From contig CAZLLA010000001.1 in assembly GCA_964560315.1 (NCBI GenBank), positions 1-54,519 on the forward strand: a stretch of DNA of 54,519 bases, in the 5' to 3' direction. The notes beneath the pieces are model-generated. The model was given only the letters and a program-made list of their open reading frames with translations, was not told the DNA's origin and made no database searches. Numbering within the stretch: position 1 is the stretch's first letter; each line of letters opens with the position of its first letter. The stretch is from an uncultured Candidatus Saccharibacteria bacterium (GTDB taxonomy: Bacteria; Patescibacteriota; Saccharimonadia; Saccharimonadales; UBA4665). Position numbers and translations under genes: made by a program. Below, piece after piece: positions 32,660-46,001 of the stretch.

Positions 32660-33324
32660 ACAGAACGTCAGCCGAACGTGGTTTCACTATTGTTGAGTTA
32701 TTGATTGCCATCACAGTCAGCGTTATATTGTCGGGTGTTATTTTAGGCTTCATGGCTGGCGAGATTGACCAGAGTACTGTCGCCACAGCCAAAGCCGCAC
32801 TATTAAACCAGGCTGAAGTCGGACTAGGCCGGGTGAATACTGACGTTCGCTTATCATCTAACGCTGATGATCAGAACCGCTGGCCTGATTCGTACGCCCC
32901 TGTCACTGGCAACGCCTACAGCTGGGCGTCCAACAGCTCCACCCTCATACTGGCGACTGCAGCCGAAGGTCCAAACTATAGTATTCTGTGGCAAGACGCC
33001 AATGAATATATCCCTTATAAAAATAATCTTATTTACTTTGTTAAAAACGGTACACTGTATAAGCGAACGCTAGCCGCACCGGAAAGTGGCAATGTGGTTA
33101 AGACTTCTTGTCCGGCTCAATACGCCTCTAGTTCTTGTCCAGCCGATGAGATTGTTTTAAGCAATGTTTCGTCCTTTACTGTCACCTACCTAGACGGTAA
33201 CGGCAATAGCATAACCCCATCCAGTGCTCGTTCGATAGTTTTACAAATTTCACTGTCAGAAAAATCATTCGGTCAGATAATTAATGCGTCGTATACTACA
33301 CAAATGGTATTCCGCGATGATTAA
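32656..33324 (+). CDS. minor (pseudo)pilin, PilW-like
   Basis: Prepilin signal MNRTSAERG|FTIVELLIAI. 222 aa. ATGA overlap with the upstream gene. Confidence 0.75.
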   Translation: MNRTSAERGFTIVELLIAITVSVILSGVILGFMAGEIDQSTVATAKAALLNQAEVGLGRVNTDVRLSSNADDQNRWPDSYAPVTGNAYSWASNSSTLILATAAEGPNYSILWQDANEYIPYKNNLIYFVKNGTLYKRTLAAPESGNVVKTSCPAQYASSSCPADEIVLSNVSSFTVTYLDGNGNSITPSSARSIVLQISLSEKSFGQIINASYTTQMVFRDD

Positions 33325-34750
33325 AACTTTTAAAAAAATCAGCCGATCATTATTCAGTCATCTGGATCGTCAGAGTGGTTACATACTAGTGGCCGTGCTT
33401 TGGATCTCGATTGTTTTGACACTCATTGCTATCGCTTTACTCAGCGGCGGCTCTGACCAATACGCACTTGCTAGTGATAATTTCTATACCACCGATGCAC
33501 TTTACACTGCCGAAGCCGGTATCGAACAATCAATCAGTCAACTTAATCAAAGCGGCAGCTTTACGGGTTACTCAACCAACCAGACATTTTTCAACAACAG
33601 TAGCCAAGGTCTTGGTACATTCACTACAACTATCGCCAATGTAGCTGGCAGCAATGCTAAGACTATAACCTCAACAGGTGTCACCTACCGACTAGGTAAC
33701 CCCATACCGGTTGCCTCGCGAACAGTTAAAGTAACCGTGGTTGGCACCAGTTCAAGTAGCAATTCAGTGATCAGTGGCCCAGGTGGTTTGATTCTCAGTG
33801 GCAGTGCCAATATCACCAACGGTCCAGTTTATGTTAATGGCACGATATCCATGAGTGGGGCGGCTCAAATTGGCACCAGCTCCCAACCATTAGTGGTTAA
33901 TGTAGCTAACGACGCTTGTCCTACCGGCTCAAGCCCGGGATCAACTTATCCCCAAATTTGTATCACTACTCAACCGATTTCACTAGCCTATAGTACTGAT
34001 ATTTACGGAACGGTTTGTGCCACTGGCCAAACCTCCGACGGACCCGCCGGGAACAATATCCAGGGCGGCAGTGGCGATCTTGGTCTTGAGGCTGGCTGTA
34101 CGGCTCCAGTCGTCTCGCCACCAACTTACAATCGCGCCAGCCAAATAAGTGCTGTTACTACAACCGCTTCCGGAACTAGCAATACTTATACTTGTCAGCA
34201 ATATCCATATAATCGTACTTGGCCGGCCAATCTAGAACTAACAGGTAACGTGACGATTGGTGGCAGTTGTGATGTGACCATTGATGGCAACGCTTATATT
34301 TCCGGTAGTCTCAATATCGGTGGTGCTTCAAATATAACGGTTGCCAACAGTGTCGGTACCACTACCCCGGTAGTAATCGTTGACGGCACGATAACAGTCG
34401 GTGGCTCAGCTGCCATGATCGCCAACAGTAGCGGAACTGGTATAGAATTTATTAGTTTTGATAGCGCCGCTGCGTGCGGTGCAACTTGCACAAGTTTGTC
34501 CGGCAATGACCTATACAAGTCCTCGCAATTAACAACTGTAAATATTGGCGGAGCGGTTAGTTTACCAGGGATGATTTTTCAGGCTTACTGGGGTGAATTG
34601 GTGTTGGGTGGCAGCGGTCACATCGGAGCAGTCGCCGGTCAAACTATCAACATGAGCGGCGCAGGTACCATCGTCTTCGGAACGACTCTTTCATCTGGAA
34701 CCAGTACATGGACCATCACTAGCTACCAACAATTGCCATCTGCCCCTTAA
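33317..34750 (+). CDS. large PilX-like minor pilin / putative tip-associated beta-helix protein
   Basis: Start placed at ATG 33317 (overlaps the upstream stop). Hydrophobic N-terminus SGYILVAVLWISIVLTLIAIAL without E+5. G/S/T/N-rich with periodic G-x-x-x-I/V-x-G repeats suggesting a beta-helix. Confidence 0.6.
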   Translation: MIKTFKKISRSLFSHLDRQSGYILVAVLWISIVLTLIAIALLSGGSDQYALASDNFYTTDALYTAEAGIEQSISQLNQSGSFTGYSTNQTFFNNSSQGLGTFTTTIANVAGSNAKTITSTGVTYRLGNPIPVASRTVKVTVVGTSSSSNSVISGPGGLILSGSANITNGPVYVNGTISMSGAAQIGTSSQPLVVNVANDACPTGSSPGSTYPQICITTQPISLAYSTDIYGTVCATGQTSDGPAGNNIQGGSGDLGLEAGCTAPVVSPPTYNRASQISAVTTTASGTSNTYTCQQYPYNRTWPANLELTGNVTIGGSCDVTIDGNAYISGSLNIGGASNITVANSVGTTTPVVIVDGTITVGGSAAMIANSSGTGIEFISFDSAAACGATCTSLSGNDLYKSSQLTTVNIGGAVSLPGMIFQAYWGELVLGGSGHIGAVAGQTINMSGAGTIVFGTTLSSGTSTWTITSYQQLPSAP

Positions 34751-34810
34751 CCAGTAAAGTCGGCTCATCTGATAGAAAATGATATACTTACAGCTAAAGG
34801 TTGACGCTTG

Positions 34811-35890
34811 ATGGGCAGCACAAACATACCGACTTTATTAAGAAATAAACCAGTTTTTGGTCTTGATGTTGGGCATAGTTCGCTAAAAGTTATGCAGGTG
34901 GAGCAATCTACTACCAATTCGCCAACACCTCGTTTGATCGGTTACGGAACAATTACTTTTGACACCGCGGCGCTAAATGACGGTGTTATTGTTAAGCCTG
35001 AAATTATTGCCGAAGCTTTGTCGCATTTGTTTAAACATCAACTAATTGGCGACATTACGACGCGCCGAGTTGCTATGACCATCCCCTCATATCGTTCTTT
35101 CTCTCGTTCCATGCAGTTACCTAAATTATCTTCCAAAGACTTGCGTGAGGCAGTCAAGTTAGAGGCCGAGCAATATATTCCCTTACCACTTGACGACTTG
35201 TATCTCGATTACACCATCACCCAGGTCGGCAAAGAAATGGATGATTTGCTAGCTGTCGCTGTACCCAAAGAAATCGTCGATTCATACCTAACCCTAGCCC
35301 GACTGGTAGACTTGGAGATCATATTATTAGAAACTACAATGGCAGCTGATTCTCGATTGTTCGCTCATGATAAATCCCATGACTATACCAGCGTTATTAT
35401 TGATTTTGGATCACTGTCGGCAGACATTAGTATTTTTAATAAGAACACCCTCGTCACCGGTACTGTACCAGCTGGTGGGCTGGTCTTTACTGACAGTATT
35501 AAGGAAAGTTTGAAAGTAACAATGGCCGAGGCTGGTGTTATTAAGACAAAGTACGGCTTAAGCTTAAGCAAAAAACAACGTGAGATTACGAGTTCGCTCA
35601 AACCAACCTTACAAAAACTGACTAAGGAAATACAACGTATGATCCGTTATCATGAGGAGCATTACGGGTCAGAAAAACCGATTGAGCAAGTCATCATGCT
35701 CGGTGGTGGCTCAAACATGCCGGGTTTAAGTGAATATTTAACCGACTCCTTGCGCTTGCCGGTGAGCGTGCGTAACCCGTGGCAATATCTAGACTACAAA
35801 GGTTTTCAAACGCCCAACAAGGCTGATCAGTTGATGTATGCTACAGTGGCTGGTTTGTCACTAGTCAATCCGAAAGAGATATTCGCATGA
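34811..35890 (+). CDS. pilM: type IV pilus assembly protein PilM (actin-like ATPase fold)
   Basis: About 359 aa. FGLDVGHSSLKVMQV N-terminus and GGGSNMPGL C-terminal motif. The ORF-track start at 34808 is TTG; the ATG is at 34811. Confidence 0.8.
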   Translation: MGSTNIPTLLRNKPVFGLDVGHSSLKVMQVEQSTTNSPTPRLIGYGTITFDTAALNDGVIVKPEIIAEALSHLFKHQLIGDITTRRVAMTIPSYRSFSRSMQLPKLSSKDLREAVKLEAEQYIPLPLDDLYLDYTITQVGKEMDDLLAVAVPKEIVDSYLTLARLVDLEIILLETTMAADSRLFAHDKSHDYTSVIIDFGSLSADISIFNKNTLVTGTVPAGGLVFTDSIKESLKVTMAEAGVIKTKYGLSLSKKQREITSSLKPTLQKLTKEIQRMIRYHEEHYGSEKPIEQVIMLGGGSNMPGLSEYLTDSLRLPVSVRNPWQYLDYKGFQTPNKADQLMYATVAGLSLVNPKEIFA

Positions 35891-36495
35891 TTAACTTACT
35901 ACCGCCAGAACTCAAACAGTCTTATCGTTATGCCTATCGTAACGTTTCTCTGGTGCGTTGGGCTGTAGCCTTTGGACTGAGTTTTATTGGTTTGGTTATC
36001 ATCAGTACGGCAGGACTTATCTTCATGCAGCAAACTACTCAAACTTATGCCACGCAAGTCACAGACGAACAAAATTTATTGAACCAGCAAAAGTTGTCAT
36101 CAACTCAAACCCAAGTCCAAAATATCAGTAACAACTTGAAGTTAGCCGTTCAGGTATTGTCACAAGAAGTTCTGTTTTCAAAACTGCTAGAGCAGCTGGC
36201 TATTGTTACACCCAGCAACGCCATTTTAACCAACCTTGATCTCAGTCAGTCTGAAACTGGGGTTACTATTACTGCCTTAACTTCTAGCTATAGTGTTGCA
36301 ACCCAGCTTCAAATCAACTTGGCCTCCCCAGCCAACAAAATTTTTAGTAACGCCGATATCGTTAGCATTAATTGTCTGTCACCGTCAGAGTCCTCTGGTG
36401 AACAAACTACACAACAATATCCCTGCACCGCAATCATCCGTGCTTTGTTTGTTACCAATAATCCTTTTCTATTTATTAATAATAGCGGGCAGTAA
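35887..36495 (+). CDS. pilN: PilN-like bitopic pilus alignment protein
   Basis: MINLLPPE N-terminus typical of PilN. One TM. 202 aa. ATGA overlap with pilM. Confidence 0.7.
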   Translation: MINLLPPELKQSYRYAYRNVSLVRWAVAFGLSFIGLVIISTAGLIFMQQTTQTYATQVTDEQNLLNQQKLSSTQTQVQNISNNLKLAVQVLSQEVLFSKLLEQLAIVTPSNAILTNLDLSQSETGVTITALTSSYSVATQLQINLASPANKIFSNADIVSINCLSPSESSGEQTTQQYPCTAIIRALFVTNNPFLFINNSGQ

Positions 36496-36498
36496 ATT

Positions 36499-37104
36499 AT
36501 GACCAGTAAACACCTATACTTCGGGATGATCGCTATAATCGTTTTGCTGATTGGCGGTTTAGTTGTCGGCGCTTATGGTGCTGATCAACTGTTGCAAGCT
36601 CAGTCAGCCCAACTTGTCAGTAATCGTTTACAGACCTCCGTTCTGGCCCAAGAACAAACGGAACTTATCCAGGCAAAACAAGACGTTAAGAAATACCAAA
36701 ATCTGGCCACAATTGCTCAAAGCATTGTACCTCAAGACAAGGATCAAGCTGAAACAGTCTTACAGATCGTTAATATCGCCAGCGAAAACGGCGTCGCACT
36801 AGCTTCAATTACCTTTCCGTCTTCATCCTTAGGACTGCAAACCGGCCAACCCGCGAGTAGTTCCAGTATTAGTTTGTCACAGTTGACTCCAGTCACGGGC
36901 ATCCCGGGAGTTTATGACCTACAACTGGTCATTCAATCTGATACCGCCAACCCAGTACCATACAGTAATTTTATCGGCTTCTTGAGCGCCCTAGAGAACA
37001 ACCGCCGGACAGCTCTAATCAGTGACGTCTCGATTCAACCCAACGCTCAAGACCGTAACACGTTAACCTTTTCATTAACTCTAGACGAGTATGTTAAGCC
37101 ATGA
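36499..37104 (+). CDS. pilO: PilO-like bitopic pilus alignment protein
   Basis: 201 aa. N-terminal TM, coiled coil, then a ferredoxin-like C-terminal part. Position after pilN. Confidence 0.6.
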   Translation: MTSKHLYFGMIAIIVLLIGGLVVGAYGADQLLQAQSAQLVSNRLQTSVLAQEQTELIQAKQDVKKYQNLATIAQSIVPQDKDQAETVLQIVNIASENGVALASITFPSSSLGLQTGQPASSSSISLSQLTPVTGIPGVYDLQLVIQSDTANPVPYSNFIGFLSALENNRRTALISDVSIQPNAQDRNTLTFSLTLDEYVKP

Positions 37105-37418
37105 AGAACAGTAACATCAACCTCAAACTTGATTTGAAAGCTCTGCCGGACCTTTTAGATTCTATATCGCACCGTGTCAAACGTTACACCGTCATATTGT
37201 TTTCATTATTGCTCTTAGCTGTTTATGGCTTCGTTTTAATGAGAATCAGTTCTCTAATTAACGCTGAACCTAGTGCGTCGGCCATTAGCGCCCAAGCCCA
37301 AACAGTGGCGATACCGCACATCAACCCAAATACCGTACAACAAATCCAGAATCTCCAGAGTAACAGCGTTAACGTTCAGGCACTTTTCAATCAGGCCAGA
37401 ACTAACCCATTCCAGTAG
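37101..37418 (+). CDS. small bitopic protein, last gene of the pilus cluster
   Basis: 105 aa. One TM (YTVILFSLLLLAVYGFVLM). ATGA translational coupling to the pilO-like gene. Confidence 0.5.
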   Translation: MKNSNINLKLDLKALPDLLDSISHRVKRYTVILFSLLLLAVYGFVLMRISSLINAEPSASAISAQAQTVAIPHINPNTVQQIQNLQSNSVNVQALFNQARTNPFQ

Positions 37419-37427
37419 CACTAAATA

Positions 37428-38462
37428 TCACACCAGCGTTGGCTGATTCTGGTTGGCCTGAGATTGCTTTTTACCTAGATGTTTGTAGGCTTTAGGGGTG
37501 GCTTTTCGACCCCGCGGGGTTCTTTCCAGCAAACCGATCTGCATAAGGTATGGTTCAATAAAATCTTCAATAGTTCCCCGTTCTTCAGCCGTTAAAGCTG
37601 CTAGTGTTTCAACACCAACCGGACCGCCCCGGTAATTATCAATAATGGCATTAAGTAGCAACCGATCAACCGGATCAAGACCAAGCTCGTCAATCTCTAA
37701 CATCGCCAAAGCTTTAACACTGATTGACGTGTCAATCATGCCATCGCCGTTGACATCAGCATAGTCGCGCACTCTTTTCAGTAAACGGTTGGCAATTCTT
37801 GGGGTTAAACGTGACCGGCCAGCTAACAGTTCGGTGCCACCCTGATCAATCTTAATGCCTAAGATCTTAGCCGAGCGCTTAATTATCTGGCCGATTTGTT
37901 CCGGTGTATAAAATTCCAGACGGTGAATATGCCCAAAGCGGTCTCTTAGCGGTGCGGCCATGGCTCCTGTTCTGGTTGTCGCCCCGATCAAAGTAAAGTG
38001 TGGTAGGTCAAGCCGCAAACTTCGAGCACTGGGACCTTTGCCGAGCATAATATCGAGTTTGAAATCTTCCATGGCGCTATATAACACCTCTTCGACCGTG
38101 CGATGAAGACGGTGAATCTCATCAATAAACAGAACGTCGCTGTCCTGCAGATTAGTTAGTAAGCTTGCCAAGTCGCCGGCCCTTTCGATAGCTGGGCCGG
38201 AAGTAATTCGAATCTGGGTGCCCAGTTCATGGGCAATAACGCTAGCCATGGTAGTTTTGCCAAGACCAGGAGGCCCATATAAAAGCACATGATCGAGTGG
38301 TTCGTTGCGCTTCTTAGCGGCTTTGACGGCTAGCTGCAAATTTTGCTTTAGACGGTCTTGGCCAATATAGCTGGCAAAATCATGTGGTCTTAAACGAGCT
38401 TCAAATTCTTCTTCGGCTGGACCTTCTGTGGTTGGCTTAGTCGGCGCAATATGCTCAATCAT
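37428..38462 (-). CDS. ruvB: Holliday junction helicase RuvB
   Basis: 344 aa. Walker [10 protein letters not shown], Walker B FIDEIH, RuvB C-terminal winged helix. Confidence 0.95.
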
Positions 38463-38522
38463 ATGGTCCTATTATACCTTGACAGCTGTTTGTAGACATT
38501 ATTATTTGATAGAAAAGACTCT

Positions 38523-39098
38523 CTACTGCTTCAGGGCCTGTCTGACCCGTTCTTCAACTGGCAATGTCGGATCGACCTTATACAGAGCTGTAATGGCATC
38601 TTGCGGAGAGTAGCCTAGACTAGTCAGGGCTTCAACAGCTTCATCTCGACCGTTGACGCCAGGACGATTGACAATATCCTCAGCTGATTCGCTAGCCAGC
38701 TGTCCAACTTTATCGCGGAGCTCAACGACAATTTGTTCGGCTGCACGTTTGCCCACCCCTTTGGCGCTTTGCAGTAACTTGACATCACCGCCGGCAATGG
38801 CCTGACGAACACTAGTACTACTGCCGATATCTATAACTGCTAGGGCAACTTTTGGTCCAACATTCTTGACACTCAAAAGCTGCTCAAATAGACGTTTTGT
38901 GTCGAGTAACATAAAGCCGTAGAGATCATGATTTTGTTCACGTATATGCTCATAAACGTAAAGTTTAAATTTCTGTCCGGTTATCAATTGCCCGTAGTCT
39001 TCGTTGGTTACAGCTAGCCCGTAGCCGACCCCGCCAACGTCAAGTACAACGACATCCATCGTTTTTTCACTGACAAGTCCCTCGAGTGTCGCAATCAT
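38523..39098 (-). CDS. ruvA: Holliday junction DNA-binding protein RuvA
   Basis: MIATLEGLV start (ATG 39098), two HhH motifs (VKNVGPKVA, AKGVGKRAAE), C-terminal domain III. The 20-codon Cys-rich extension in the ORF track overlaps ruvC. Confidence 0.9.
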   Translation of the reverse strand: MIATLEGLVSEKTMDVVVLDVGGVGYGLAVTNEDYGQLITGQKFKLYVYEHIREQNHDLYGFMLLDTKRLFEQLLSVKNVGPKVALAVIDIGSSTSVRQAIAGGDVKLLQSAKGVGKRAAEQIVVELRDKVGQLASESAEDIVNRPGVNGRDEAVEALTSLGYSPQDAITALYKVDPTLPVEERVRQALKQ

Positions 39099-39106
39099 CT
39101 TCTTTA

Positions 39107-39577
39107 TTATCGCACAGTCTGGGCATGCGTTAGGGCGGCAGCTAAAGCATCGGCACAATCATCTGGCTGTGGCATGTCCTTGAGTTGCAATATAACTCGC
39201 ACCATCTCTTGAATCTGCTTTTTTTCAGCCCGGCCATAACCAGTAATAGCCATTTTGATTTGCAAGGGAGTATACTCAAAAATACTCAATCCGGCTTGCT
39301 TACCGCACAATAGAACTACGCCTCTGGCTTGAGCTACCGTCATGGCGGTCGTAATATTACGGATAAAGAATAGCTTTTCAACCGACATGGTTGTTGGCTT
39401 TGTGGCAGCAATAATATCTGTCAACTCTTCATAAATCGTCTGCAGACGAACGGCATCATCTTGTTTAACCGGTGTTCTTATGACACCGGCGTCAACGAGC
39501 TGAGCCTGGCTACCACTTGTTTCAATGATCCCAAAACCCAAGATACCAGTCCCGGGGTCGATACCTAAAATACGCAT
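39107..39577 (-). CDS. ruvC: crossover junction endodeoxyribonuclease RuvC
   Basis: MRILGIDPGT N-terminus (catalytic Asp). Conserved E, D, D positions. ORF-track start 39595 is possible but less likely. Confidence 0.9.
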   Translation of the reverse strand: MRILGIDPGTGILGFGIIETSGSQAQLVDAGVIRTPVKQDDAVRLQTIYEELTDIIAATKPTTMSVEKLFFIRNITTAMTVAQARGVVLLCGKQAGLSIFEYTPLQIKMAITGYGRAEKKQIQEMVRVILQLKDMPQPDDCADALAAALTHAQTVR

Positions 39578-39607
39578 AAGAACAGTATATGCCAACTGCT
39601 GGCTTTC

Positions 39608-40063
39608 CTAGCGTAGCAAAGGAATCAGAAGCACTATGGCACCTATAAACCAAGCAACTTCAACAACTACTCCGATGGGACGTTCAAACCATTGGATCTG
39701 GCTGGCAAATTTAGAATATAGATTGGGATGATACTTGGTGTGCGCTAGAGCGTGACGATATTTATTAATCGATAATAAATCAGGGGCGGCGGCCAAGAAA
39801 GCGCAGATAACTGCCAGCTGCCAGTTGATAGGCCGATTTATCGCCAGTAGGATTACCAGGCCAAAACAAAGAATAGTATCGAAATATATTAATCGCCGAA
39901 ATAGCGATGACTGAAGTCTTTGATCTTCTGGATCATTCTGCCCATAATGCGGAATAGCATCGCAAACGAAATGTGAGACTATTGCCAATGGTATTGCCGC
40001 TGCTGGCTCAGCAATTGCCAAACCAATAACTGCACCAGTTAAAGCATGATTAATCGCTCGCAT
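39608..40063 (-). CDS. DUF457/YdjM-like membrane-bound putative metal-dependent hydrolase
   Basis: 151 aa, 4 TMs. HALTGAV N-terminus and HFVCDAIPH motif. Confidence 0.55.
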   Translation of the reverse strand: MRAINHALTGAVIGLAIAEPAAAIPLAIVSHFVCDAIPHYGQNDPEDQRLQSSLFRRLIYFDTILCFGLVILLAINRPINWQLAVICAFLAAAPDLLSINKYRHALAHTKYHPNLYSKFASQIQWFERPIGVVVEVAWFIGAIVLLIPLLR

Positions 40064-40077
40064 ATTACTTGAACCTT

Positions 40078-40803
40078 TCAGAGTAAAGCTTCGGGAATGT
40101 CAAAATTGACATGAGTATTGGTGACATCATCGATTTCATCAAGCGCATCCATTAAACGCATGACTTTATCGGCCGTATCCTTATCGCCGACTTCGACAGT
40201 ATTATTTGGGACGTAGGTCATCTCCGAATCCAAGATTCTTAAACCAGCCGTGACTAGATTATCACGTACTTTTGCTAGTTCGGTCGGATTAGTATAAATT
40301 ACCGATTCGTCACCTTCCTCTTGAACGTCCTCAGCCCCCGCATCCAAGGCTTGCATTAATAACTCATCGCCAGTGCCTTGGACTCTAAGTAGGCCTTTTC
40401 GATCAAACTGAAAGGCGACTGCCCCTTTTTCGGCCAAACGGCCACCGTGCTTAGAAAAAGCTAATCGAACATCTGGGTAAGTTCGATTAAGATTGTCTGT
40501 CGCGCATTCAACCAGGATTGCTACACCGCCCGGTCCGTAACCCTCGTACATGACTTCTTGAATCTGTGATCCACCGAGTTTACCGGAACCACGATCAATC
40601 GAGCGCTGAATGTTGGCCGCTGGCATGTTAGAGGCACGGGCTTTATCGATGGCTAATCGTAATGCAAAGTTAGTCTCCGGATCAGAACCCCCGCGAGCAG
40701 CTACAGCTATAGTGTTGCCCAACTTCGTAAATATGGCACCTCTAACCGCGTCTTTACTGGCCTTTTGCCGTTTTATCGTTGACCACTTGCTATGACCTGA
40801 CAT
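40078..40803 (-). CDS. yebC: YebC/PmpR family DNA-binding regulator
   Basis: MSGHSKWSTIKRQKA...YEGYGPGGVAI, diagnostic YebC sequence. Confidence 0.95.
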   Translation of the reverse strand: MSGHSKWSTIKRQKASKDAVRGAIFTKLGNTIAVAARGGSDPETNFALRLAIDKARASNMPAANIQRSIDRGSGKLGGSQIQEVMYEGYGPGGVAILVECATDNLNRTYPDVRLAFSKHGGRLAEKGAVAFQFDRKGLLRVQGTGDELLMQALDAGAEDVQEEGDESVIYTNPTELAKVRDNLVTAGLRILDSEMTYVPNNTVEVGDKDTADKVMRLMDALDEIDDVTNTHVNFDIPEALL

Positions 40804-41018
40804 TTCTCATAAACCTCGGGATTAAACTATCAATAATGTTAAAACTTAACGATTTCTCGTTAATGTGAGTATGTGTGACTAATGCGACCCGGTCGTTAGC
40901 TGACCAGATTTATCATATAGCATTGCTGTTACCTTATTCAAATGCGCAGTTCACTTTTTATTCTTATAGCACTAAACCGTTTGTTGCAACCAATAGTCAT
41001 TGTTGAGTTTCCGATCAT

Positions 41019-42311
41019 ATGCTTGCTCTATTGCGCTTTAAAGTTATACATTTGGAGAATAAACCTAATGTGTTTAAATACCTACAGATGGCTACATTCT
41101 TGTTAGTTGGTAAAAGTTTTTTTCGGCTACGTGATTATCTAGATAAACATAATCATACTTACGTGACACTCCTGGATCAGCTTGCAACAAAAGCTCACAG
41201 GTCAGATAACACAATTGTCTGTGATTTTTCATCAATAGAAACGGTTATTGATACGGTTAAAATAATCGATAAACAATTCCATATTGATGGAATAATTGCG
41301 ATATACGAGAACTATATACTTACTGCCGCACATATAGCTAAAAGTCTTAACCTACCAGGATTACCCATCGGCGCGGCTGAGGCTTGTACGGATAAACAAT
41401 TAATGAGACAGCTATTTGCGCAAGCACCGGAAAAGATTAGTCCAGAATTTAGGCAAGTCAGAAATAAGGATGATTTAATAGAATTCGCTAATAGCCATAA
41501 TTTTCCGCTAATTCTTAAGCCAACTAACTTAGCTAAAAGTCTATTGGTCACAAAAGCCAATAGTAAAGACGGGCTGCTAGAAAATTATGATCATGCAATT
41601 AATCAAATAGCCGACGTTTATAAGAAATATGCCCCCAACCGTACCCCTAAACTACTGGTTGAGGAATTTATTGAAGGTAGCATTCATTCGGTAGATGCTT
41701 TTATAGATCAATCCGGTGAAGTTCACGTTCTTAAAGAGGTTGTTGATTATGAGACAGGCCAGGAAATTGGCTACAATGACAACTTCCACTACAGCCGGAC
41801 CTTACCTTCTAAACTAAAAAATGAAGACATAGAAGCCATTAGACATTGCGCCGTTGTTGGGTGTCATTCGCTTGGAATGCTAAGTTCCCCTGCACACGTA
41901 GAAGTAATTCTTAGCAAAGATGGCCCTCGGGTAGTTGAAATTGGAGCTCGAAATGGCGGTTACCGAGAACGAATGTACGATTTTGCCAATGGGATAGACA
42001 TTGTTGGCAATGCAATCTCAGTAGCTCTAGGGAATAAGCCAAGCATAAAAGCTAAATATAATTTTCCATGCGTAACACTAGAACTATTTCCCAAAAATGA
42101 TGGAATTTTTCTAGATATCGCAAACGAAAATGAGTTAGAAAAACTACCTTCACTGGCTTATTATAATTCAAAAGTAAAACCAGGAGATTTTGTAGGAAAA
42201 TCGTCGGCTGGCTACAAAGCTTGTGCAGTAATAATCTTACATAACAGAGATGTTTCAAAGTTTGAAAAAGACTATTCTTATGTGCGAAATAACGTTCGTG
42301 TCCAAACCTGA
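41019..42311 (+). CDS. ATP-grasp carboxylate-amine ligase family protein
   Basis: 430-aa ORF. ATP-grasp motifs PLILKPTN, LVEEFIEGSIHSVDAF, HVEVILSKDGPRVVEIGARNGG. Start uncertain (ATG 41019, GTG 41070 or ATG 41088). Confidence 0.7.
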   Translation: MLALLRFKVIHLENKPNVFKYLQMATFLLVGKSFFRLRDYLDKHNHTYVTLLDQLATKAHRSDNTIVCDFSSIETVIDTVKIIDKQFHIDGIIAIYENYILTAAHIAKSLNLPGLPIGAAEACTDKQLMRQLFAQAPEKISPEFRQVRNKDDLIEFANSHNFPLILKPTNLAKSLLVTKANSKDGLLENYDHAINQIADVYKKYAPNRTPKLLVEEFIEGSIHSVDAFIDQSGEVHVLKEVVDYETGQEIGYNDNFHYSRTLPSKLKNEDIEAIRHCAVVGCHSLGMLSSPAHVEVILSKDGPRVVEIGARNGGYRERMYDFANGIDIVGNAISVALGNKPSIKAKYNFPCVTLELFPKNDGIFLDIANENELEKLPSLAYYNSKVKPGDFVGKSSAGYKACAVIILHNRDVSKFEKDYSYVRNNVRVQT

Positions 42312-42450
42312 TACTGAAGATTGTTCTTAGACTGAAATATTTTTTACATATTTGGAGTGCAGCCAGTGATAATTTACGCTCCTTGCTTGATGAAATGCAA
42401 CGTTGGAGGGGTATTATTGGAGATGAGTACCTAGCAAAAAAGCACACATA

Positions 42451-43377
42451 TTAGATATTTTTCTCAAGTGAATTCATTAAATTACTTAAATCAAGTTTAT
42501 ATTGAGTTAATTGCTCGCTCTTCATTTCGTGATTGGATTGGTATAGTTTCCAATAGAGATAGACGGCCGCTCCGAGTTTATCCAAGTTAAGCCACACTTT
42601 TAGTCTCTCGTAGTTAAGGTGACCTCCCGCATCTTTATAGGCACCGAGTAATGCCTCACGTTCATTGTCTTTGATATGAACACGCCACTTGCCTTTGTTG
42701 TACTCCATATCTTCATAAAACATAGTGGAGAAGTCTGACATCGGGTCTTTGAATTTAGAGAACTCCCAATCTATTAAAGAAATCCTGCTTTCGTTTGCGA
42801 GCATATTGTTTAATGTCACGTCACCATGTATTAAAGAAGCTCTTAAAGACATAGCTGGTCGGGATTTGAAGTAATCACGCGCTCTATTAATGAGGGTTTT
42901 TAGTCGTTCGTCGGGATGGCTTAGAAGAAATGCTTCGTCACCAAAATGCACACTTGCCTCTAGAAAATCATTCCAATAATCAAGTATCGTTTGGTGCTCA
43001 CTTTTTACTTCGTGTACTTTGGCAAGCAATTCACCGATTGATTCAAATTGTTCTATAGTTAGGCTATCGGGCGTTTTGCCACTTATGTAAGTTTCTAAAA
43101 TCCAAGCTCTGTCTTTTATTCTGTTTTCTTCATTGAAGTAAAGAAGTTTTGGAGCTTGGTCAGTATCAATCAGTGACAATGCCCTGGCCTCTTGTTTCAG
43201 AGTATTAACATCATGATATCTGGTTATTCGTAAAATAACCTTCTGCAAAGAACAGTCCAATATAAGCGTATCGTTAACTTCTCCGCCGCCAAGAGCAGTA
43301 CATTTACCAGTAAATCCAGTAACTTTGGCAGTATCAAGCAAGTTTTGAATATCTTTAATGTTTATATCAACGGGCAT
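42451..43377 (-). CDS. APH/choline-kinase family small-molecule phosphotransferase
   Basis: 308 aa. Catalytic loop LIHGDVTLNNML and IDWEFS motif. Extended -10 TGTTATCAT lies 6 nt from the ATG. Confidence 0.75.
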   Translation of the reverse strand: MPVDINIKDIQNLLDTAKVTGFTGKCTALGGGEVNDTLILDCSLQKVILRITRYHDVNTLKQEARALSLIDTDQAPKLLYFNEENRIKDRAWILETYISGKTPDSLTIEQFESIGELLAKVHEVKSEHQTILDYWNDFLEASVHFGDEAFLLSHPDERLKTLINRARDYFKSRPAMSLRASLIHGDVTLNNMLANESRISLIDWEFSKFKDPMSDFSTMFYEDMEYNKGKWRVHIKDNEREALLGAYKDAGGHLNYERLKVWLNLDKLGAAVYLYWKLYQSNHEMKSEQLTQYKLDLSNLMNSLEKNI

Positions 43378-43440
43378 AAAGACATGATAACAGAGCGATA
43401 ATCAATTTGATGTAAACGGCTCAACGGGTGGTGTTTAAAT

Positions 43441-43475
43441 TTAACAGATATAAATTCTAAATGGAGGGCCATCGT
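43441..43475 (+). repeat. short copy of repeat TTAACAGATA...TGGAGGGCCATCGT (tRNA-Lys 3'-end-like)
   Basis: TTAACAGATA at 43441-43450 and TGGAGGGCCATCGT at 43462-43475, both exact matches to the copy at 44615-44701. Followed by hairpin TCGTA-N8-TACGA (43472-43489). Confidence 0.7.
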
Positions 43476-43549
43476 AGAATTAAGTACGACGAAAATCCGA
43501 GGAAGTTACGGATTATTTATTGCTAGTGAACAAGCAGTATAATTAACCC

Positions 43550-44608
43550 ATGAACGTAAAAGGTGTTAATTACGATGTAGGCACAGTAATGGGTGTAAAC
43601 TGGCGACCTGACTACGACCCAAATACCGTTCAGAAAGAACTAGAGATTATTCAAAAAGACTTGCACTGTAACTCTGTTGGTATTAGCGGTAAGGACATTG
43701 GACGTGTGATGTTGACTGCCGAAGCTGCGCTAAGTTTAGGTTTAGAAGCCTGGCTAAATCCAGCAGATTGGGGTAATAAGCCCCCTGAGCCTACACTTTC
43801 TTATATTACTGAAGCCGCTAAGGCCGCACAGCCACTGCATGAACACTATCCAGGTAAAGTAGTATTTAGTCTAGGTTCGGAATTTACGCTATTTATGCAA
43901 GGTATCATAGAAGGTAGAACTTTTATGGCACGAGCAAAAAACCTTAGTCAAGGTGGTGCTGGTATTAAAGAGGGTAAACACAATCAACCACTTAACGACT
44001 TTTTAACCAAAGCTGTTTCAGAAGTACGAAAGGTCTTTAGTGGGCAAGTTATGTATCGTTCGCTGGTTTGGGAGCAAGTTGATTGGAGTATCTTTGACGT
44101 AATTGGCGTTGACCACTATTGGGCTGAAAAGATAAAAGACCAGTATATAGATATGGTGAAGCCTTTGTTTACTTATAATAAGCCAGTTATTAACACAGGG
44201 TTTGGTTTTAACACTACATCTTCACCCGTCACTGGAATGCTGTCATCACTTGGTCATGAACCCTCCGTCCTACTACACCAAGTACCAGTAGTTGGACGAT
44301 TTATTAGGCCTAAGCTCAAAGTTATTGAGGAACGTGATGAAGCACTCCAAGCGAAACGCTTAATTGATAACCTGAAGCTTATTGATAGGGCTGGTTTTAG
44401 TGGTGCGTTTATGGATATGTTTATATTCCCAATAAGACCTTATAGCGATACGCCAAAATATGACTTAGATAGGGCGAGTTCAAGTCTGGTGAAATACTTT
44501 GAAGGCGGCAGGCACGGCACCACCTATCCGGACATGACTTGGGAACCAAAAGAAGCGTTCAAAGCAGTAGCTAATTATTATGATTCATCTAGACCCACCA
44601 AGGACTAG
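43550..44608 (+). CDS. hypothetical protein, possibly (beta/alpha)8 glycoside-hydrolase-like fold
   Basis: 352-aa ORF. GVNYD N-terminus, LGSEF and VINTGFGF strand-end patterns reminiscent of clan GH-A, with no clear nucleophile Glu. TATAAT (43538-43543) lies 6 nt from the ATG. Confidence 0.35.
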   Translation: MNVKGVNYDVGTVMGVNWRPDYDPNTVQKELEIIQKDLHCNSVGISGKDIGRVMLTAEAALSLGLEAWLNPADWGNKPPEPTLSYITEAAKAAQPLHEHYPGKVVFSLGSEFTLFMQGIIEGRTFMARAKNLSQGGAGIKEGKHNQPLNDFLTKAVSEVRKVFSGQVMYRSLVWEQVDWSIFDVIGVDHYWAEKIKDQYIDMVKPLFTYNKPVINTGFGFNTTSSPVTGMLSSLGHEPSVLLHQVPVVGRFIRPKLKVIEERDEALQAKRLIDNLKLIDRAGFSGAFMDMFIFPIRPYSDTPKYDLDRASSSLVKYFEGGRHGTTYPDMTWEPKEAFKAVANYYDSSRPTKD

Positions 44609-44614
44609 AATTTT

Positions 44615-44701
44615 TTAACAGATAGGAATGAAGCTCTAAAAACAACAATTCCGACTTAGAGACTAATTCTCATCTGTTAGCAACTTTTGGAGGGCCATCG
44701 T
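44615..44701 (+). repeat. long copy of repeat TTAACAGATA...TGGAGGGCCATCGT with internal inverted repeats
   Basis: Same end motifs as 43441-43475. The 63-nt insert carries TAACAGAT/ATCTGTTA (44616-44623 / 44672-44679), GGAAT/ATTCC and CTCTAA/TTAGAG pairings. Confidence 0.7.
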
Positions 44702-44779
44702 GAACGCTGTAGCAACCAAGCTTAAGGAGAATAAAGAACTATTTATTATAGAACTATCAAATGATGGCTTAAACCATCG

Positions 44780-45766
44780 CTACACTTCGCTTATGACTTC
44801 AAAGCCCTTGAAGCTGCCAGTAATTGCAAGCCCGATAATTTGACCCCTGCATAGCCCTCTTTGGCGTATCTTCTTAGCTGTTTCATTGAGAGTAGAGCCT
44901 GACCCGACAGCGTCATCTATGAGCAAAATATTGCTATAACTACCGCTAGCTTCAACAACAATTGTTTCCCTGGCATTTATAACTCTGTCTTCAATTTTAT
45001 TTAGAGTCTTTTGCGGTACGGCTACTGGAGTTTTAACTTTATTAATTACTAAGGTTCTTGTGTCAAGATTTAGCCTTTTTTGAATTTGCCTTATAAGTTG
45101 CAGTTCCCTTTTAACCGTAGGTGGTATAAATCCGACGCCATCAACGTTATACTCTTTAATTACTTTTAGAACAGATGGTTTAATAATGTCCGCCAGTTCG
45201 TTGATTAGTTTTCTGTTTTGGCTCTGCTTGGCAAACAGCAGGAGCTGGCCAAGCTTTGTTTTCCCAAATATTTCTGTAGCATAGAAATCAATATAAAAAA
45301 CCTTGTTTAGAGCAACCTCGTCAAAGGTTGACTTCATCTTGTACATTCCGTCAATGAGACCTTGTTTAGCATATTTTTGGTATTTATTGACCGTCTTTTT
45401 ATACGTAATGGCAGTCTTTACAGGGTCAAGTTTTCTTTCCTGGCACCAAACGAAAAAGCCATCCAAACCCGCTAGCATAGTTCCTCTAGGTGTAATGTAC
45501 AAAAAATTGTCTTTAATTGTTCGTTGTGTAATTTTATCAATTGATCTAAGTCGATCATCAACTTTTTGATTTGTATTAGTGTCGGATCGGATGAAGTAAT
45601 AAACCTTAGGTGGCTTCCCCGTTTTTACGACCACACCACCTTCCAGCAATGTTTTTAGTTGCTTCCTAACTGCACGGTCAGTTATAGATAGATAGTCTAC
45701 GAGCTCGGATCCTGTTACTTGACCATGCTGTTCAATATACTTAGTTATTTTCTGTGACGTATTCAT
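44780..45766 (-). CDS. winged-HTH domain fused to ComF-like phosphoribosyltransferase
   Basis: 328 aa. N-terminal wHTH (GQVTGSELVDYLSITDRAVRKQLKTLLEGG). C-terminal PRTase loop ILLIDDAVGSGSTLNE, preceded by a ComF-like middle region (DGVGFIPPTVKRE...). Confidence 0.65.
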   Translation of the reverse strand: MNTSQKITKYIEQHGQVTGSELVDYLSITDRAVRKQLKTLLEGGVVVKTGKPPKVYYFIRSDTNTNQKVDDRLRSIDKITQRTIKDNFLYITPRGTMLAGLDGFFVWCQERKLDPVKTAITYKKTVNKYQKYAKQGLIDGMYKMKSTFDEVALNKVFYIDFYATEIFGKTKLGQLLLFAKQSQNRKLINELADIIKPSVLKVIKEYNVDGVGFIPPTVKRELQLIRQIQKRLNLDTRTLVINKVKTPVAVPQKTLNKIEDRVINARETIVVEASGSYSNILLIDDAVGSGSTLNETAKKIRQRGLCRGQIIGLAITGSFKGFEVISEV

Positions 45767-45785
45767 GCTGTTAGTGTAACATAAA

Positions 45786-45807
45786 AGTTCCTAGTACACT
45801 AGGAACT
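45786..45807. promoter_or_regulatory. 22-bp palindrome AGTTCCTAGT-AC-ACTAGGAACT (operator and/or tRNA-Lys terminator)
   Basis: 10-bp perfect arms, read directly. Lies between tRNA-Lys and the wHTH-PRTase start, just upstream of its -10 (TACACT, 45773-45778, minus). On the minus strand it is followed by TTTTAT. Confidence 0.55.
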
Positions 45808-45835
45808 AGGAACTTTTTTACTTTGATCTTTTTCG

Positions 45836-45912
45836 TGGAGGGCCCAGTGGGACTTGAACCCACGACACCCTGCTTAAAAGGCAGGTGCTCTAACCAGCTG
45901 AGCTATGGGCCC
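45836..45912 (-). tRNA. tRNA-Lys(UUU)
   Basis: Reverse complement folds as GGGCCCA-TA-GCTC-AGCTGGTTA-GAGC-A-CCTGC-CTTTTAA-GCAGG-GTGTC-GTGGG-TTCAAGT-CCCAC-TGGGCCC-T-CCA (77 nt). The discriminator appears to be U. Confidence 0.85.
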
Positions 45913-46001
45913 TTATTAAGGTTAAACTGCCCGAGAAGGCAGCAATAACTTCTTACATTATCTGCAAAACAACTGAAAAGTCAAACTGATATACGAGAAG
46001 C

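Follow-up and report, generated by a model that had tools for sequence, protein, structure and literature searches.

A probable footprint of repeated site-specific insertion at the tRNA-Lys(UUU) gene of an uncultured Saccharimonadales genome

We describe an AT-rich 5-kb stretch in the genome of an uncultured Saccharimonadales (TM7) bacterium that is probably the tRNA-proximal part of a slot built by repeated site-specific insertion at the 3' end of tRNA-Lys(UUU). The stretch lies in a window of 54.5 kb (W), and we read it as a footprint of such insertion rather than as a new defence system. The observations made in a preliminary description of this DNA are confirmed, and the interpretation given there is partly supported. 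The features concerned are the following:

40078..40803, minus strand: yebC, first gene of the conserved yebC-ruvCAB block, which bounds the variable slot
41019..42311, plus strand: ATP-grasp protein, L-amino-acid-ligase-like, 430 aa (Pfam ATP-grasp_4, ATPgrasp_N, LAL_C2); distal to the last repeat
42451..43377, minus strand: APH-family small-molecule kinase, 308 aa (Pfam APH, 1.7e-19); distal to the last repeat
43462..43522, minus strand: repeat copy W_A, core 43462-43470 with a more divergent arm (nhmmer E = 1.1e-7; alignment)
43550..44608, plus strand: unit 2 gene, KijX/AcvX-family clan GH-A (TIM-barrel) glycosidase, 352 aa (PDB 7y4h AcvX, E = 1.5e-51, full length)
44609..44686, plus strand: imperfect hairpin (31-nt arms, 74% complementary) followed by a T run, terminator-like, just past the glycosidase stop
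44688..44748, minus strand: repeat copy W_B, core 44688-44696 with the conserved arm (nhmmer E = 2e-13)
44780..45766, minus strand: unit 1 gene, wHTH (HTH_11/DeoR-like) with C-terminal ComF/GntX-like PRTase, 328 aa (Pfam; NCBIfam comF/GntX)
45787..45813, no strand assigned: palindrome GTTCCTAG-TACA-CTAGGAAC (+TAGGAAC), seen in the sequence between the tRNA and the PRTase start
45836..45912, minus strand: tRNA-Lys(UUU), CCA encoded (ARAGORN; Rfam tRNA, 73.9 bits; 9-mer count)

The tRNA gene, on which ARAGORN and Rfam agree, and the four open reading frames on alternating strands stand where they had been placed before, and ORF calls together with profile and structure searches return the same assignments (ATP-grasp, APH, TIM-barrel, and HTH with PRTase). 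The region had been judged AT-rich by eye, and windowed G+C is indeed 0.37-0.41 over 40.5-46 kb versus ~0.45 in the flanks, with GC3 of 0.29-0.36 in the four genes compared with 0.42-0.47 in yebC, ruvABC, RimK and dnaK. The tetranucleotide deviation, proposed as a check, is the strongest in the whole window here, peaking in the 4-kb windows 41001-45000 (z = 2.7) and 42001-46000 (z = 3.25). The comEC gene, which precedes yebC in most relatives, is absent.

The 9-mer TGGAGGGCC occurs at exactly three sites in the 54.5 kb (43462, 44688 and 45836), all on the plus strand as previously noted, compared with a shuffle expectation of 0.19, and a count of three was reached in 0 of 100 shuffles. The longer 14-mer TGGAGGGCCATCGT, likewise reported as repeated, has two sites in the window. 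The copy at 45836-45844 is the last 9 nt of tRNA-Lys, which read GGCCCTCCA in the tRNA sense and form the core common to the repeats; we propose this 9-nt 3' end as the primary insertion site. Each of the two other copies of TGGAGGGCC terminates a conserved ~60-nt repeat, ...GGTTGCAACAGCGTTCACGAT followed directly by GGCCCTCCA, in which an arm of the form ...GCAATAAATAG...TTGGTTGCAACAGCGTTCACGAT precedes the 9-nt core. In most copies the identity with the tRNA extends over the full 9 nt and then stops (6-8 of the 9 bases match in the remaining copies), and position -10, a G in every tRNA-Lys, is occupied by T or C in the repeats. The arm beyond the core is conserved among copies and unrelated to the tRNA; on the opposite flank (P') conservation is poor. 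The preliminary description had aligned 43462-43490 with the 3' part of the tRNA at ~60% identity and seen a T-arm-like hairpin there. Neither is confirmed, and the repeats are not degraded tRNA 3' halves: at most 9 nt are shared with the tRNA, the rest being the element's own conserved arm, and the alignment of repeat copies has no consensus secondary structure or conserved hairpin. The insertion point of the Dehalococcoides ssrA islands was placed by the same end-of-identity logic by McMurdie et al. (PMC3146451).

The repeat family comprises ~20 distinct copies, in W and in the related loci L092, L097, L100, L170, L174, L177 and L183; in an nhmmer search of 185 loci (2.3 Mb) the copies are confined to one Saccharimonadales clade, and a search of viral contigs gave no match. 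Copy W_B is 82% identical over 61 nt to L174:11048-11108, and by position it is orthologous to the repeat that follows the PRTase gene in L174-176, L177 and L183; W_A bounds the glycosidase unit on its distal side. Downstream of tRNA-Lys, co-oriented arrays of the repeat are present in at least six other Saccharimonadales lineages. In every locus whose fetched DNA includes tRNA-Lys (W, L092, L100, L183), the copies are found downstream of the tRNA 3' end and share its orientation, and in L100 the tRNA and the array are inverted together. The units between repeats measure 0.5-2.1 kb and hold 1-4 unrelated genes in either orientation, with content that differs by lineage:

L092: RibD_C-like protein and peptide deformylase, both identified by inspection of sequence only
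L183: EamA, PRTase, AAA_33, a 120-aa ORF and Phd antitoxin
L170: DUF347 and a PIN toxin-antitoxin pair
L174: NUDIX, HicAB and RHH-PIN

Co-oriented arrays with differing gene content support the earlier view that the repeats are att-type junctions left by successive site-specific insertions into the 3' end of tRNA-Lys, and the unit boundaries suggested at 43462-44688 and 44688-45836 coincide with repeat positions. We infer that each inserted unit would bring one ~60-nt site made of arm and 9-nt core, that strand exchange within the core would leave the tRNA intact and deposit the arm and core at the far end of the unit, and that successive insertions would build an array of tRNA, unit, repeat, unit, repeat and so on. 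The array in the window reads tRNA-Lys, wHTH-PRTase, repeat B, KijX-like glycosidase and repeat A, followed by APH and ATP-grasp. The PRTase unit would be ancient, and the comparison with L177 suggests that the glycosidase unit (gene and repeat A) was inserted later at repeat B. The order in L177 is repeat, PRTase, degenerate repeat, APH and, further on, yebC, and W differs by the additional glycosidase and repeat A, which fall exactly at the junction of the PRTase repeat with APH. The tRNA's place upstream of the PRTase gene is taken, at an equal distance, by a repeat in L170 and L177 and by a bare core in L174, as expected if newer units entered between tRNA and PRTase. Presence or absence of the cassettes as units had been proposed as a check: L177 lacks exactly the glycosidase unit, but no such polymorphism is found within the species among seven contigs from different samples (L001-L007), three of which span the whole or nearly the whole island. 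The units appear to be fixed now, the DNA being identical or near-identical (99.9-100%) over the part of the island that each contig covers. The sole strain-level breakpoint (L178/L179), at 44586, lies inside the 3' end of the glycosidase gene, ~100 nt off the core.

The wHTH-PRTase is an old resident gene, widely conserved in Saccharimonadales and vertically inherited. It has 3395 homologues in the order, with identity graded from 84 to 56%, and adjoins tRNA-Lys or its remnant in at least six lineages, which contradicts a reading of the unit as recent cargo. Its synteny is seen in L170, L172, L174-177 and L183, and its neighbours in relatives are DUF347, PIN, NUDIX, EamA or AAA_33. The palindrome at 45787-45813 is kept upstream of the gene in L170, L172, L174, L177 and L183, even where no tRNA precedes it, and is probably a PRTase promoter/operator or 5' element.

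The glycosidase is horizontally mobile and moves between phyla, with 78% identity to a homologue in Peptococcaceae CEB3 and 60% to one in Ktedonobacterales. Its AF2 model (pLDDT 80.7) has Foldseek TM scores of 0.80/0.86 to 7y4h, followed by GH113, GH5 and GH10. The enzyme is plausibly an antibiotic deglycosylase. Homologues with 87-88% identity occur in other repeat-delimited arrays (L168, L180-182). In L180-182, five co-oriented ~40-nt repeats separate VanZ, PEMT, SnoaL and glycosidase, the array adjoins a large serine recombinase as well as the tRNA-Ser 3' end, and a 4-kb block common to L180 and L182 extends from exactly the start of a repeat to the tRNA. In L168 the gene lies between 38-nt direct repeats and a serine recombinase abuts tRNA-Gly. 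Both repeat families end in ...CCA and differ from the window repeat, with which they agree at 14-15 of 27 positions when anchored at the CCA end (p ~1e-3). DNA homology between W and L168/L180 covers only the ORF, with the flanking repeats outside it, and no intact travelling cassette was caught in this comparison. In relatives the gene neighbours GH10, SnoaL or EamA.

As the preliminary description stated, the 54.5-kb window holds no recombinase detectable by tblastn with four serine recombinases or by a heuristic tyrosine-recombinase motif scan; there is likewise none beside the arrays of L092, L100, L177 and L183, and the enzyme must work, or once have worked, in trans. Both the short core and the two other glycosidase-bearing arrays, with their large serine recombinases, suggest an enzyme of the large serine type. 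The nearest known parallels are the Dehalococcoides ssrA islands and the SCC composite islands. The array is not an integron, as the repeat lacks a conserved hairpin and there is no integrase in the vicinity.

Alternatively, the slot could be ordinary low-synteny DNA of a fast-evolving reduced genome, with a local intergenic repeat family spread by homologous recombination or gene conversion, no site-specific recombinase being involved, and a tRNA match that is one inherited accident. Gene order around yebC-ruvCAB is loose throughout the Saccharimonadales compared, with further insertions between yebC, ruvC, ruvA and ruvB, the variable slots of remoter relatives lack repeats and contain housekeeping-like genes, and both the missing recombinase and the fixation within the species would fit. 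We nevertheless consider this unlikely, as the core has kept its full or near-full identity with the tRNA end though the arms have diverged to ~60-80% across lineages, every array starts from the 3' end of the tRNA and follows its orientation even when inverted (L100, L183), and the independent L180 and L168 repeats likewise end in ...CCA next to tRNA genes and lie beside serine recombinases. Moreover, L017 and L027 contain classical 21-nt tRNA-Lys 3' duplications, so that this tRNA end carries further att-like duplication in the order. A regulatory role of the repeat, for example as an operator bound by the adjacent wHTH-PRTase, is somewhat less likely still. The best-conserved block of the repeat does contain a perfect palindrome, GTTGCAAC, and the repeat flanks the PRTase gene in W, L170, L174, L177 and L183; its likeness to the tRNA end would be incidental, helped by the complement of CCUCCA being the Shine-Dalgarno-like GGAGG. 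The plus-strand core indeed reads GGAGG with a GTG 6 nt on, and a gene caller predicts a 47-aa ORF (44700-44843), but the putative start codon is unconserved and variation is nearly flat over codon positions (334/269/371), so that there is no micro-ORF there. Against an operator, the L092 and L100 arrays have no PRTase homologue, and copy orientation tracks the tRNA rather than the adjacent genes, with 88 nt separating copy A from the next start codon and copy B facing a convergent gene at its 3' end. Wherever the tRNA is within the fetched DNA, copies in the 2.3 Mb lie only downstream of tRNA-Lys, and the sharp 9-nt end of tRNA identity in most copies is unexpected for an operator.

The preliminary description favoured an undescribed, possibly defensive system, and the four genes might form one such module, e.g., a PRTase effector and wHTH sensor with kinase, ligase and hydrolase partners. 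PADLOC profiles do match the wHTH-PRTase (PsyrT, C-terminal half, 3.5e-18; retron type III-A PRTase, 1.4e-6), and one NCBI record calls a 60% glycosidase homologue an 'abortive infection protein'. However, PADLOC finds no system and no match for the other three proteins, and the RecQ-like half, PsyrA, reverse transcriptase and ncRNA are all absent. The genes alternate in orientation and thus are not an operon but separate transcription units; they never occur together in relatives. The PRTase family is near-universal in Saccharimonadales and graded in identity like a core gene, and the glycosidase is homologous over its full length to an enzyme whose small-molecule substrate is known. We therefore disfavour the defence-module reading as very improbable; the four genes are independent accessory functions and not a joint system.

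In the insertion reading, a cassette structure is demonstrable for just about half of the region flagged earlier, as APH and ATP-grasp lack a flanking repeat (no copies in 40.7-43.46 kb). The APH protein, possibly an antibiotic or metabolite kinase, has weak NCBIfam matches to thiamine, homoserine and guanitoxin kinases and closest homologues of at most 60% identity; a 45%-identical APH occupies the same position in L177, directly after PRTase and repeat. The ATP-grasp protein matches the L-amino acid ligase PDB 3vot (1.5e-20) as well as BacD, and a 51% homologue stands alone elsewhere in L017.

The feature of this stretch that deserves attention is a recurrent cassette array anchored at the gene for tRNA-Lys(UUU). 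The preliminary description had placed this gene and four open reading frames next to the yebC-ruvCAB block, in DNA that appeared AT-rich by eye, and both points are borne out. The G+C content is 0.37-0.41 over 40.5-46 kb and ~0.45 elsewhere, GC3 is 0.29-0.36 in the four island genes and 0.42-0.47 in the flanking core genes, and the strongest tetranucleotide deviation in the window belongs to two 4-kb windows centred on the island (z = 2.7 and 3.25). The sequence TGGAGGGCC occurs three times (43462, 44688 and 45836; 0.19 occurrences expected), always on the plus strand, and the 14-mer reported to surround two of these occurrences is indeed found twice in the window. The features are as follows.

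41019-42311, plus strand: ATP-grasp ligase gene
42451-43377, minus strand: APH-family kinase gene
43462-43522, minus strand: repeat A
43550-44608, plus strand: glycosidase gene
44688-44748, minus strand: repeat B
44780-45766, minus strand: wHTH-PRTase gene
45836-45912, minus strand: tRNA-Lys(UUU)

Alignment with relatives places both extra copies of the core, i.e., of the last 9 nt of the tRNA gene, in a repeat of ~60 nt whose consensus, read in the sense of the tRNA, is ...GCAATAAATAG-(~20 nt)-ATTTTGGTTGCAACAGCGTTCACGA[T/C]GGCCCTCCA and which also holds GTTGCAAC. These relatives were reached via homologues of the PRTase and the glycosidase. An HMM search of 185 fetched loci (2.3 Mb; individual loci carry L numbers) detected ~20 distinct copies, all in one clade consisting of the window, L092, L097, L100, L170, L174-176, L177 and L183; in the genome under study the search covered 54.5 kb. 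The repeats are intergenic and separate units of 0.5-2.1 kb that contain one to four genes in either orientation. Wherever tRNA-Lys is within range (the window, L092, L100 and L183), the copies are direct repeats of its 3' end that lie downstream of it in the same orientation, and in L100 the tRNA and the array are inverted together with the co-orientation kept. The tRNA-Lys gene always ends in ...TGGGCCCTCCA whereas most repeats end in [T/C]GGCCCTCCA, and consequently the match to the tRNA stops at 9 nt in most copies. Most copies in L183 match only CCCTCCA (7 nt), and those in L174, L170, L097 and L177 have one to three mismatches in the core. The arm, which is the repeat's own part adjoining the core, is conserved between copies and is unrelated to the T-arm of the tRNA; conservation on the other side of the core (the P' side) is weak.

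The content of the units differs among the window, L092, L100, L170, L174, L177 and L183, with L183 providing the clearest case of an array.

Arrangement of genes and repeat copies (r) in the window and in relatives
Window: tRNA-Lys / PRTase / r (repeat B) / glycosidase / r (repeat A) / APH, ATP-grasp / yebC
L183: tRNA-Lys / EamA / r / PRTase / r / AAA_33 / r / 120 aa / r / Phd / r / epimerase...
L092: tRNA-Lys / RibD_C-like / r / peptide deformylase / r
L100: tRNA-Lys / 462-aa protein / r / 124-aa protein / r
L170 and L174: three or four copies between PRTase+DUF347, a PIN toxin-antitoxin pair, NUDIX+HicAB+RHH-PIN and a 136-aa ORF

The RibD_C-like protein and the peptide deformylase of L092 were identified solely by inspecting translations, and the L170 sequence is an error-prone assembly. 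The APH and ATP-grasp genes of the window have no flanking repeat, and this stretch either lies outside the array or is too old for recognition.

The preliminary description took the repeated sequences for remnants of att sites left by successive integrations into the tRNA 3' end. This reading is largely right, in that co-oriented repeats of the core bound variable units, but the copies themselves are not decayed tRNA genes. A tRNA pseudogene or a retained T-arm is rejected: the match to the tRNA does not exceed 9 nt, Rfam and ARAGORN report only the real tRNA, and there is no consensus structure, with RNAalifold predicting 0 pairs for 12 copies. Also rejected is a micro-ORF composed of a Shine-Dalgarno sequence, a GTG start and the peptide 'VNAVATKLKENKELFI', for which a few pairwise comparisons seemed synonymous-biased. 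The start codon is unconserved, differences are spread nearly flat over codon positions among 9-14 copies, and the copies show no codon periodicity; the 47-aa ORF predicted at 44700-44843 should be considered spurious. GGAGG as a Shine-Dalgarno sequence is rejected because of its position and orientation. If the insertion reading were nevertheless wrong, the locus would be a mere compositionally odd variable slot. The repeat pattern has 0 matches in viral contigs, so that no attP of a phage or provirus was found. A classical att-like duplication of the tRNA-Lys T-loop-to-CCA segment is present in two more distant Saccharimonadales (L017:8490-8692 and L027:5682-5888), where a 21-nt direct repeat, exact in L017 and with one mismatch in L027, lies 183-186 nt downstream of tRNA-Lys and encloses merely ~165 nt.

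Positional orthologues of the PRTase gene, together with its upstream palindrome and downstream repeat, are found in the window, L172/173, L174-176, L177 and L183. Repeat B and L174:11048-11108 share 82% identity, a value similar to the 79% of the PRTase gene at the DNA level. The PRTase unit directly follows the tRNA in the window and in L172. At the position of the tRNA end, L170 and L177 contain a repeat and L174 contains the bare core (GGTGGCCCTCCA), as expected if newer units had been inserted between the tRNA and the PRTase gene at these three loci, so that a repeat or core would replace the tRNA end. The arrangement in L177 is PRTase-(degenerate repeat)-APH, from which the window differs by exactly the glycosidase gene and repeat A. 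The arm of repeat A is the most divergent, and the glycosidase step matches a process in which a unit with its own arm and core would enter a resident core.

The cassettes had been expected to be present or absent as units in relatives. This applies to L177, which is without the glycosidase unit, but not to variation within the species. By its YebC, RuvCAB, DnaKJ and RimK, the window belongs to Candidatus Saccharimonadales (TM7, Patescibacteria). The nearest species-level GTDB genomes have YebC identities of 57-75%, and an identical YebC is encoded in seven contigs from peat and other metagenomes, all of them 99.9-100% identical to the window over the island parts that each covers, with no polymorphism of the island and no direct sign of mobility seen in these assemblies. 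The sole exception to identity among the seven is L002, which is divergent in 32.8-35 kb only. The only close-strain breakpoint found is that of strain L178/L179 (1555-1952), which is 97% identical to the window over the APH gene, repeat A and the glycosidase gene and diverges completely at window position 44586, 22 nt before the glycosidase stop codon and ~100 nt from the core; the replacement sequence has no match among all other fetched loci.

Among known systems, the ssrA-specific genomic islands (ssrA-GIs) of Dehalococcoides (McMurdie et al. 2011) are tandem units located downstream of a stable-RNA gene that is present in single copy. Every unit has as its boundary a direct repeat of this gene's 3' end, and immediately upstream of the repeat lies a conserved element-side motif that does not align with the RNA gene (PMC3146451). 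They have low G+C content, interrupt synteny and utilize CcrB-like serine recombinases, and some units are without integration genes (cis-mobilizable, accretion) (PMC3146451). The layout and logic of the tRNA-Lys array agree with them on all these features save the recombinase: the array is without an integration module of the DsiB/CcrB type. The two also differ in the target (tmRNA there, tRNA-Lys here), the core (20 bp and 9 nt, respectively), the size of the units (multi-kb islands as opposed to 0.5-2 kb units with mostly one gene) and the host, which here is an ultra-small CPR bacterium.

The composite islands of the SCC/SCCmec type insert at rlmH (orfX) by means of the large serine recombinases CcrAB/CcrC. 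The likeness lies in cassette arrays whose delimiting short direct repeats match a conserved gene's 3' end exactly, in the many cassettes that have no recombinase of their own and depend on one in trans, in cargo that includes resistance genes, and in the large serine recombinases found with related arrays here (L168, L180-182 and probably L174). In contrast to SCC elements, the target is a tRNA and not the protein-coding rlmH, the window contains no ccr-like gene, and the units are far smaller. Tandem accretion of ICEs, IMEs and CIMEs also takes place at the 3' ends of tRNA genes, with tRNA-Lys as a hot spot in streptococci. Such accretion shares with the array the insertion site, the att direct repeats kept between tandem elements and the persistence of decayed elements without integrase; it differs in that at least one member of an array carries a tyrosine (or DDE/serine) integrase, att identity usually extends over longer blocks, and element sizes range from kb to tens of kb. 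Integrons, and their integrase-free attC clusters known as CALINs, come close in another respect, as they too have mostly single-gene units between recurrent sites with a fixed primary site at one end, and cargo that includes toxin-antitoxin and resistance-type genes. However, attC sites are conserved in structure whereas the repeat is conserved in sequence and free of hairpins, gene orientation here is mixed, and the primary site is a tRNA 3' end. Where an integron has IntI with attI and Pc, the head of this array is tRNA-Lys, with a membrane protein and RimK/RimB upstream. The lack of IntI, the unstructured sites and the mixed orientation set the integron-like array apart from true integrons. 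What distinguishes it from the island systems above is that it targets tRNA-Lys with a 9-nt core, that its units are very small and mostly hold a single gene, that most such arrays have no recombinase within or beside them, and that the host belongs to the CPR.

No site-specific recombinase was found in a unit of the window array or beside it: neither tblastn with four large serine recombinases nor a scan for tyrosine-recombinase box motifs detected one in the window, in agreement with the initial remark that no integrase is present. None was found beside the arrays of L092, L100, L177 and L183, and no integrase is among the top 25 families listed in an aggregated Pfam scan of the variable slots of distant relatives. 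A metagenome scan with YebC yielded, among the matches listed, no relatives closer than 80% identity. Homologues of the glycosidase (87-88% identity) are found in other repeat-delimited arrays, and these do carry large serine recombinases.

L180:4976-11344 (also L181, L182): five co-oriented repeats of ~40 nt (TTGGCTGGGTATCTGTGACGAAGTTAGAACCATTCT) between VanZ, PEMT/ICMT, SnoaL_4 and glycosidase genes
L168:843-9081: island of ~8 kb with 44-48% G+C in a genome of 33% G+C

The array of L180-182 is followed by a gene for a 454-aa large serine recombinase and then by the 3' end of tRNA-Ser. A block of 4.07 kb common to L180 and L182 (99.6% identity) begins precisely at a repeat and extends as far as the tRNA, the genomes being otherwise different. 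At one end of the L168 island lies the gene for a 500-aa serine recombinase, which overlaps tRNA-Gly(GCC) with its 3' end; at the other end is the glycosidase gene between 38-nt direct repeats (82% identical, 1142 nt apart). Anchored at ...CCA, the repeats of L168 and L180-182 agree with the window consensus at 14-15 of 27 positions (p ~1e-3). In local alignment with the window repeat, the orientation of the 38-nt repeats of L168 is ambiguous, and the suggestive homology of the two comes from the CCA-anchored comparison only. L174 encodes a 554-aa serine recombinase 6 kb from the first repeat and 9 kb from the PRTase gene. A short core suits serine recombinases, and we infer a link between the window repeat family and enzymes of the large serine type. 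Three further observations concern such genes. A second serine recombinase gene in L182 (573 aa) ends within a repeat. The tRNA-Ser by the recombinase (11253-11344) has anticodon CGA in L180 and L182 and GGA in L181 in DNA that is otherwise 99.8% identical. In L170, ~3 kb upstream of the array, a 102-aa ORF (4585-4893) shows 42% identity to the large serine recombinase of L168, confined to the last 72 residues of that protein, and it probably represents what is left of a recombinase gene.

In Saccharibacteria, which combine tiny genomes with a life on other bacteria, the gain and turnover of accessory genes are poorly understood; a recurring tRNA-anchored array of single-gene units would reveal one concrete path by which genes flow among them. 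A broader possibility, which we advance tentatively and consider rather doubtful, is a gene-capture platform that resembles integrons and is built differently, present in this clade of Saccharimonadales and possibly in other CPR bacteria. Its fixed site would be a tRNA 3' end, unstructured sites of ~40-60 nt (with a few tRNA-matching bases and CCA) would bound mostly single-gene cassettes, a large serine recombinase acting in trans would move the cassettes, and related families of sites would be fitted to tRNA-Lys, tRNA-Ser and tRNA-Gly. Such a platform would give genome-reduced epibionts a compact exchange of resistance, toxin-antitoxin and metabolic genes. A site of ~60 nt is easily searched, and the idea of gene flux through tRNA-anchored arrays is therefore directly testable in many available genomes and read sets.

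The four genes had also been proposed as an undescribed system. They are separate transcription units that are never found together elsewhere, which means that they do not form one system, and PADLOC reports no full system. The annotation of two of them can be corrected. The 352-aa 'hypothetical' TIM-barrel protein aligns over its full length with AcvX (PDB 7y4h; E = 1.5e-51, residues 1-344, 33% identity). Its AlphaFold model (pLDDT 80.7, pTM 0.85) retrieves 7y4h with Foldseek (E = 2.3e-30, TM 0.80/0.86), followed by TIM barrels of GH113, GH5 and GH10. Judged by full-length sequence and predicted fold, it is a member of the KijX/AcvX glycosidase family; the assignment of function comes from the PDB title and a review (PMC12710036). 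According to that review, which cites Tan et al. 2023 and Cuthbertson et al. 2013, enzymes of this family occur widely and give resistance to spirotetronate antibiotics by removing their sugars. Their host is an actinomycete, whereas here it is a CPR epibiont and the activity is predicted. The gene is evidently exchanged across phyla, given that its homologues include one of 78% identity from a Peptococcaceae genome and others of 60% from Ktedonobacterales.

The wHTH-PRTase gene is conserved in the lineage and does not encode a defence effector. Databases contain 3395 homologues whose identity declines gradually from 84% to 56% and which, where named, belong to Saccharimonadales/Patescibacteria. 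Its C-terminus is nearest to ComF/GntX (TIGR00201 comF, 23.4 bits against a cut-off of 233) and its N-terminus is a wHTH and not the ComF zinc finger, so the protein resembles ComF and would not count as a member of ComF/ComFC. PADLOC matches it to PsyrT, at profile positions 366-682 of 689 only, and to the retron III-A PRTase, and gives no match for its island neighbours. Pfam detects no RT in eight proteins (the four island genes, three beyond the tRNA and the ORF adjoining yebC), and Rfam no retron RNA. PsyrTA and retron type III-A are rejected, as no full PsyrT, no PsyrA and no RT with ncRNA turned up in these scans; the two PADLOC matches reflect only the shared C-terminal domain. Just upstream of the gene, the palindrome GTTCCTAG-TACA-CTAGGAAC (+TAGGAAC; 45787-45813) is conserved in L170, L172, L174, L177 and L183, even without a preceding tRNA. 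It may serve as an operator for the regulator itself or as a 5' element, and not as the terminator of the tRNA. Homologues of the APH kinase do not exceed 60% identity, and its similarity to characterised kinases is weak; the ATP-grasp protein resembles L-amino-acid ligases (3vot, BacD).

Some further variation was seen in and around the island. In the otherwise identical contig L004 (3843-5135), two ORFs stand in place of the single ATP-grasp gene, and the glycosidase is fragmented in some assemblies of the same organism (members of cluster P0121); these are either real frameshifts, i.e., incipient pseudogenes, or assembly errors. The contig L002 differs from window positions 32821-35000 by ~13% (311 differences in 2.2 kb) and from 35000-45860 by one difference, the former being a hypervariable segment inside a pilus/T2SS-like block (N_methyl pseudopilins, PilM). 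At least 13 related Saccharimonadales genomes have a ComEC-like gene (~490 aa) immediately upstream of yebC; this gene is missing here from that position (40804-41018) and throughout the window. In a comparison of L008, L011, L012, L013, L027, L100 and L183 with the window, tRNA-Lys switches its orientation with respect to the RimK and yebC flanks from one relative to another, and the PRTase segment is inverted relative to RimK in L174 and L183. Inversions thus seem to have recurred here, with breakpoints at the tRNA or close to it.
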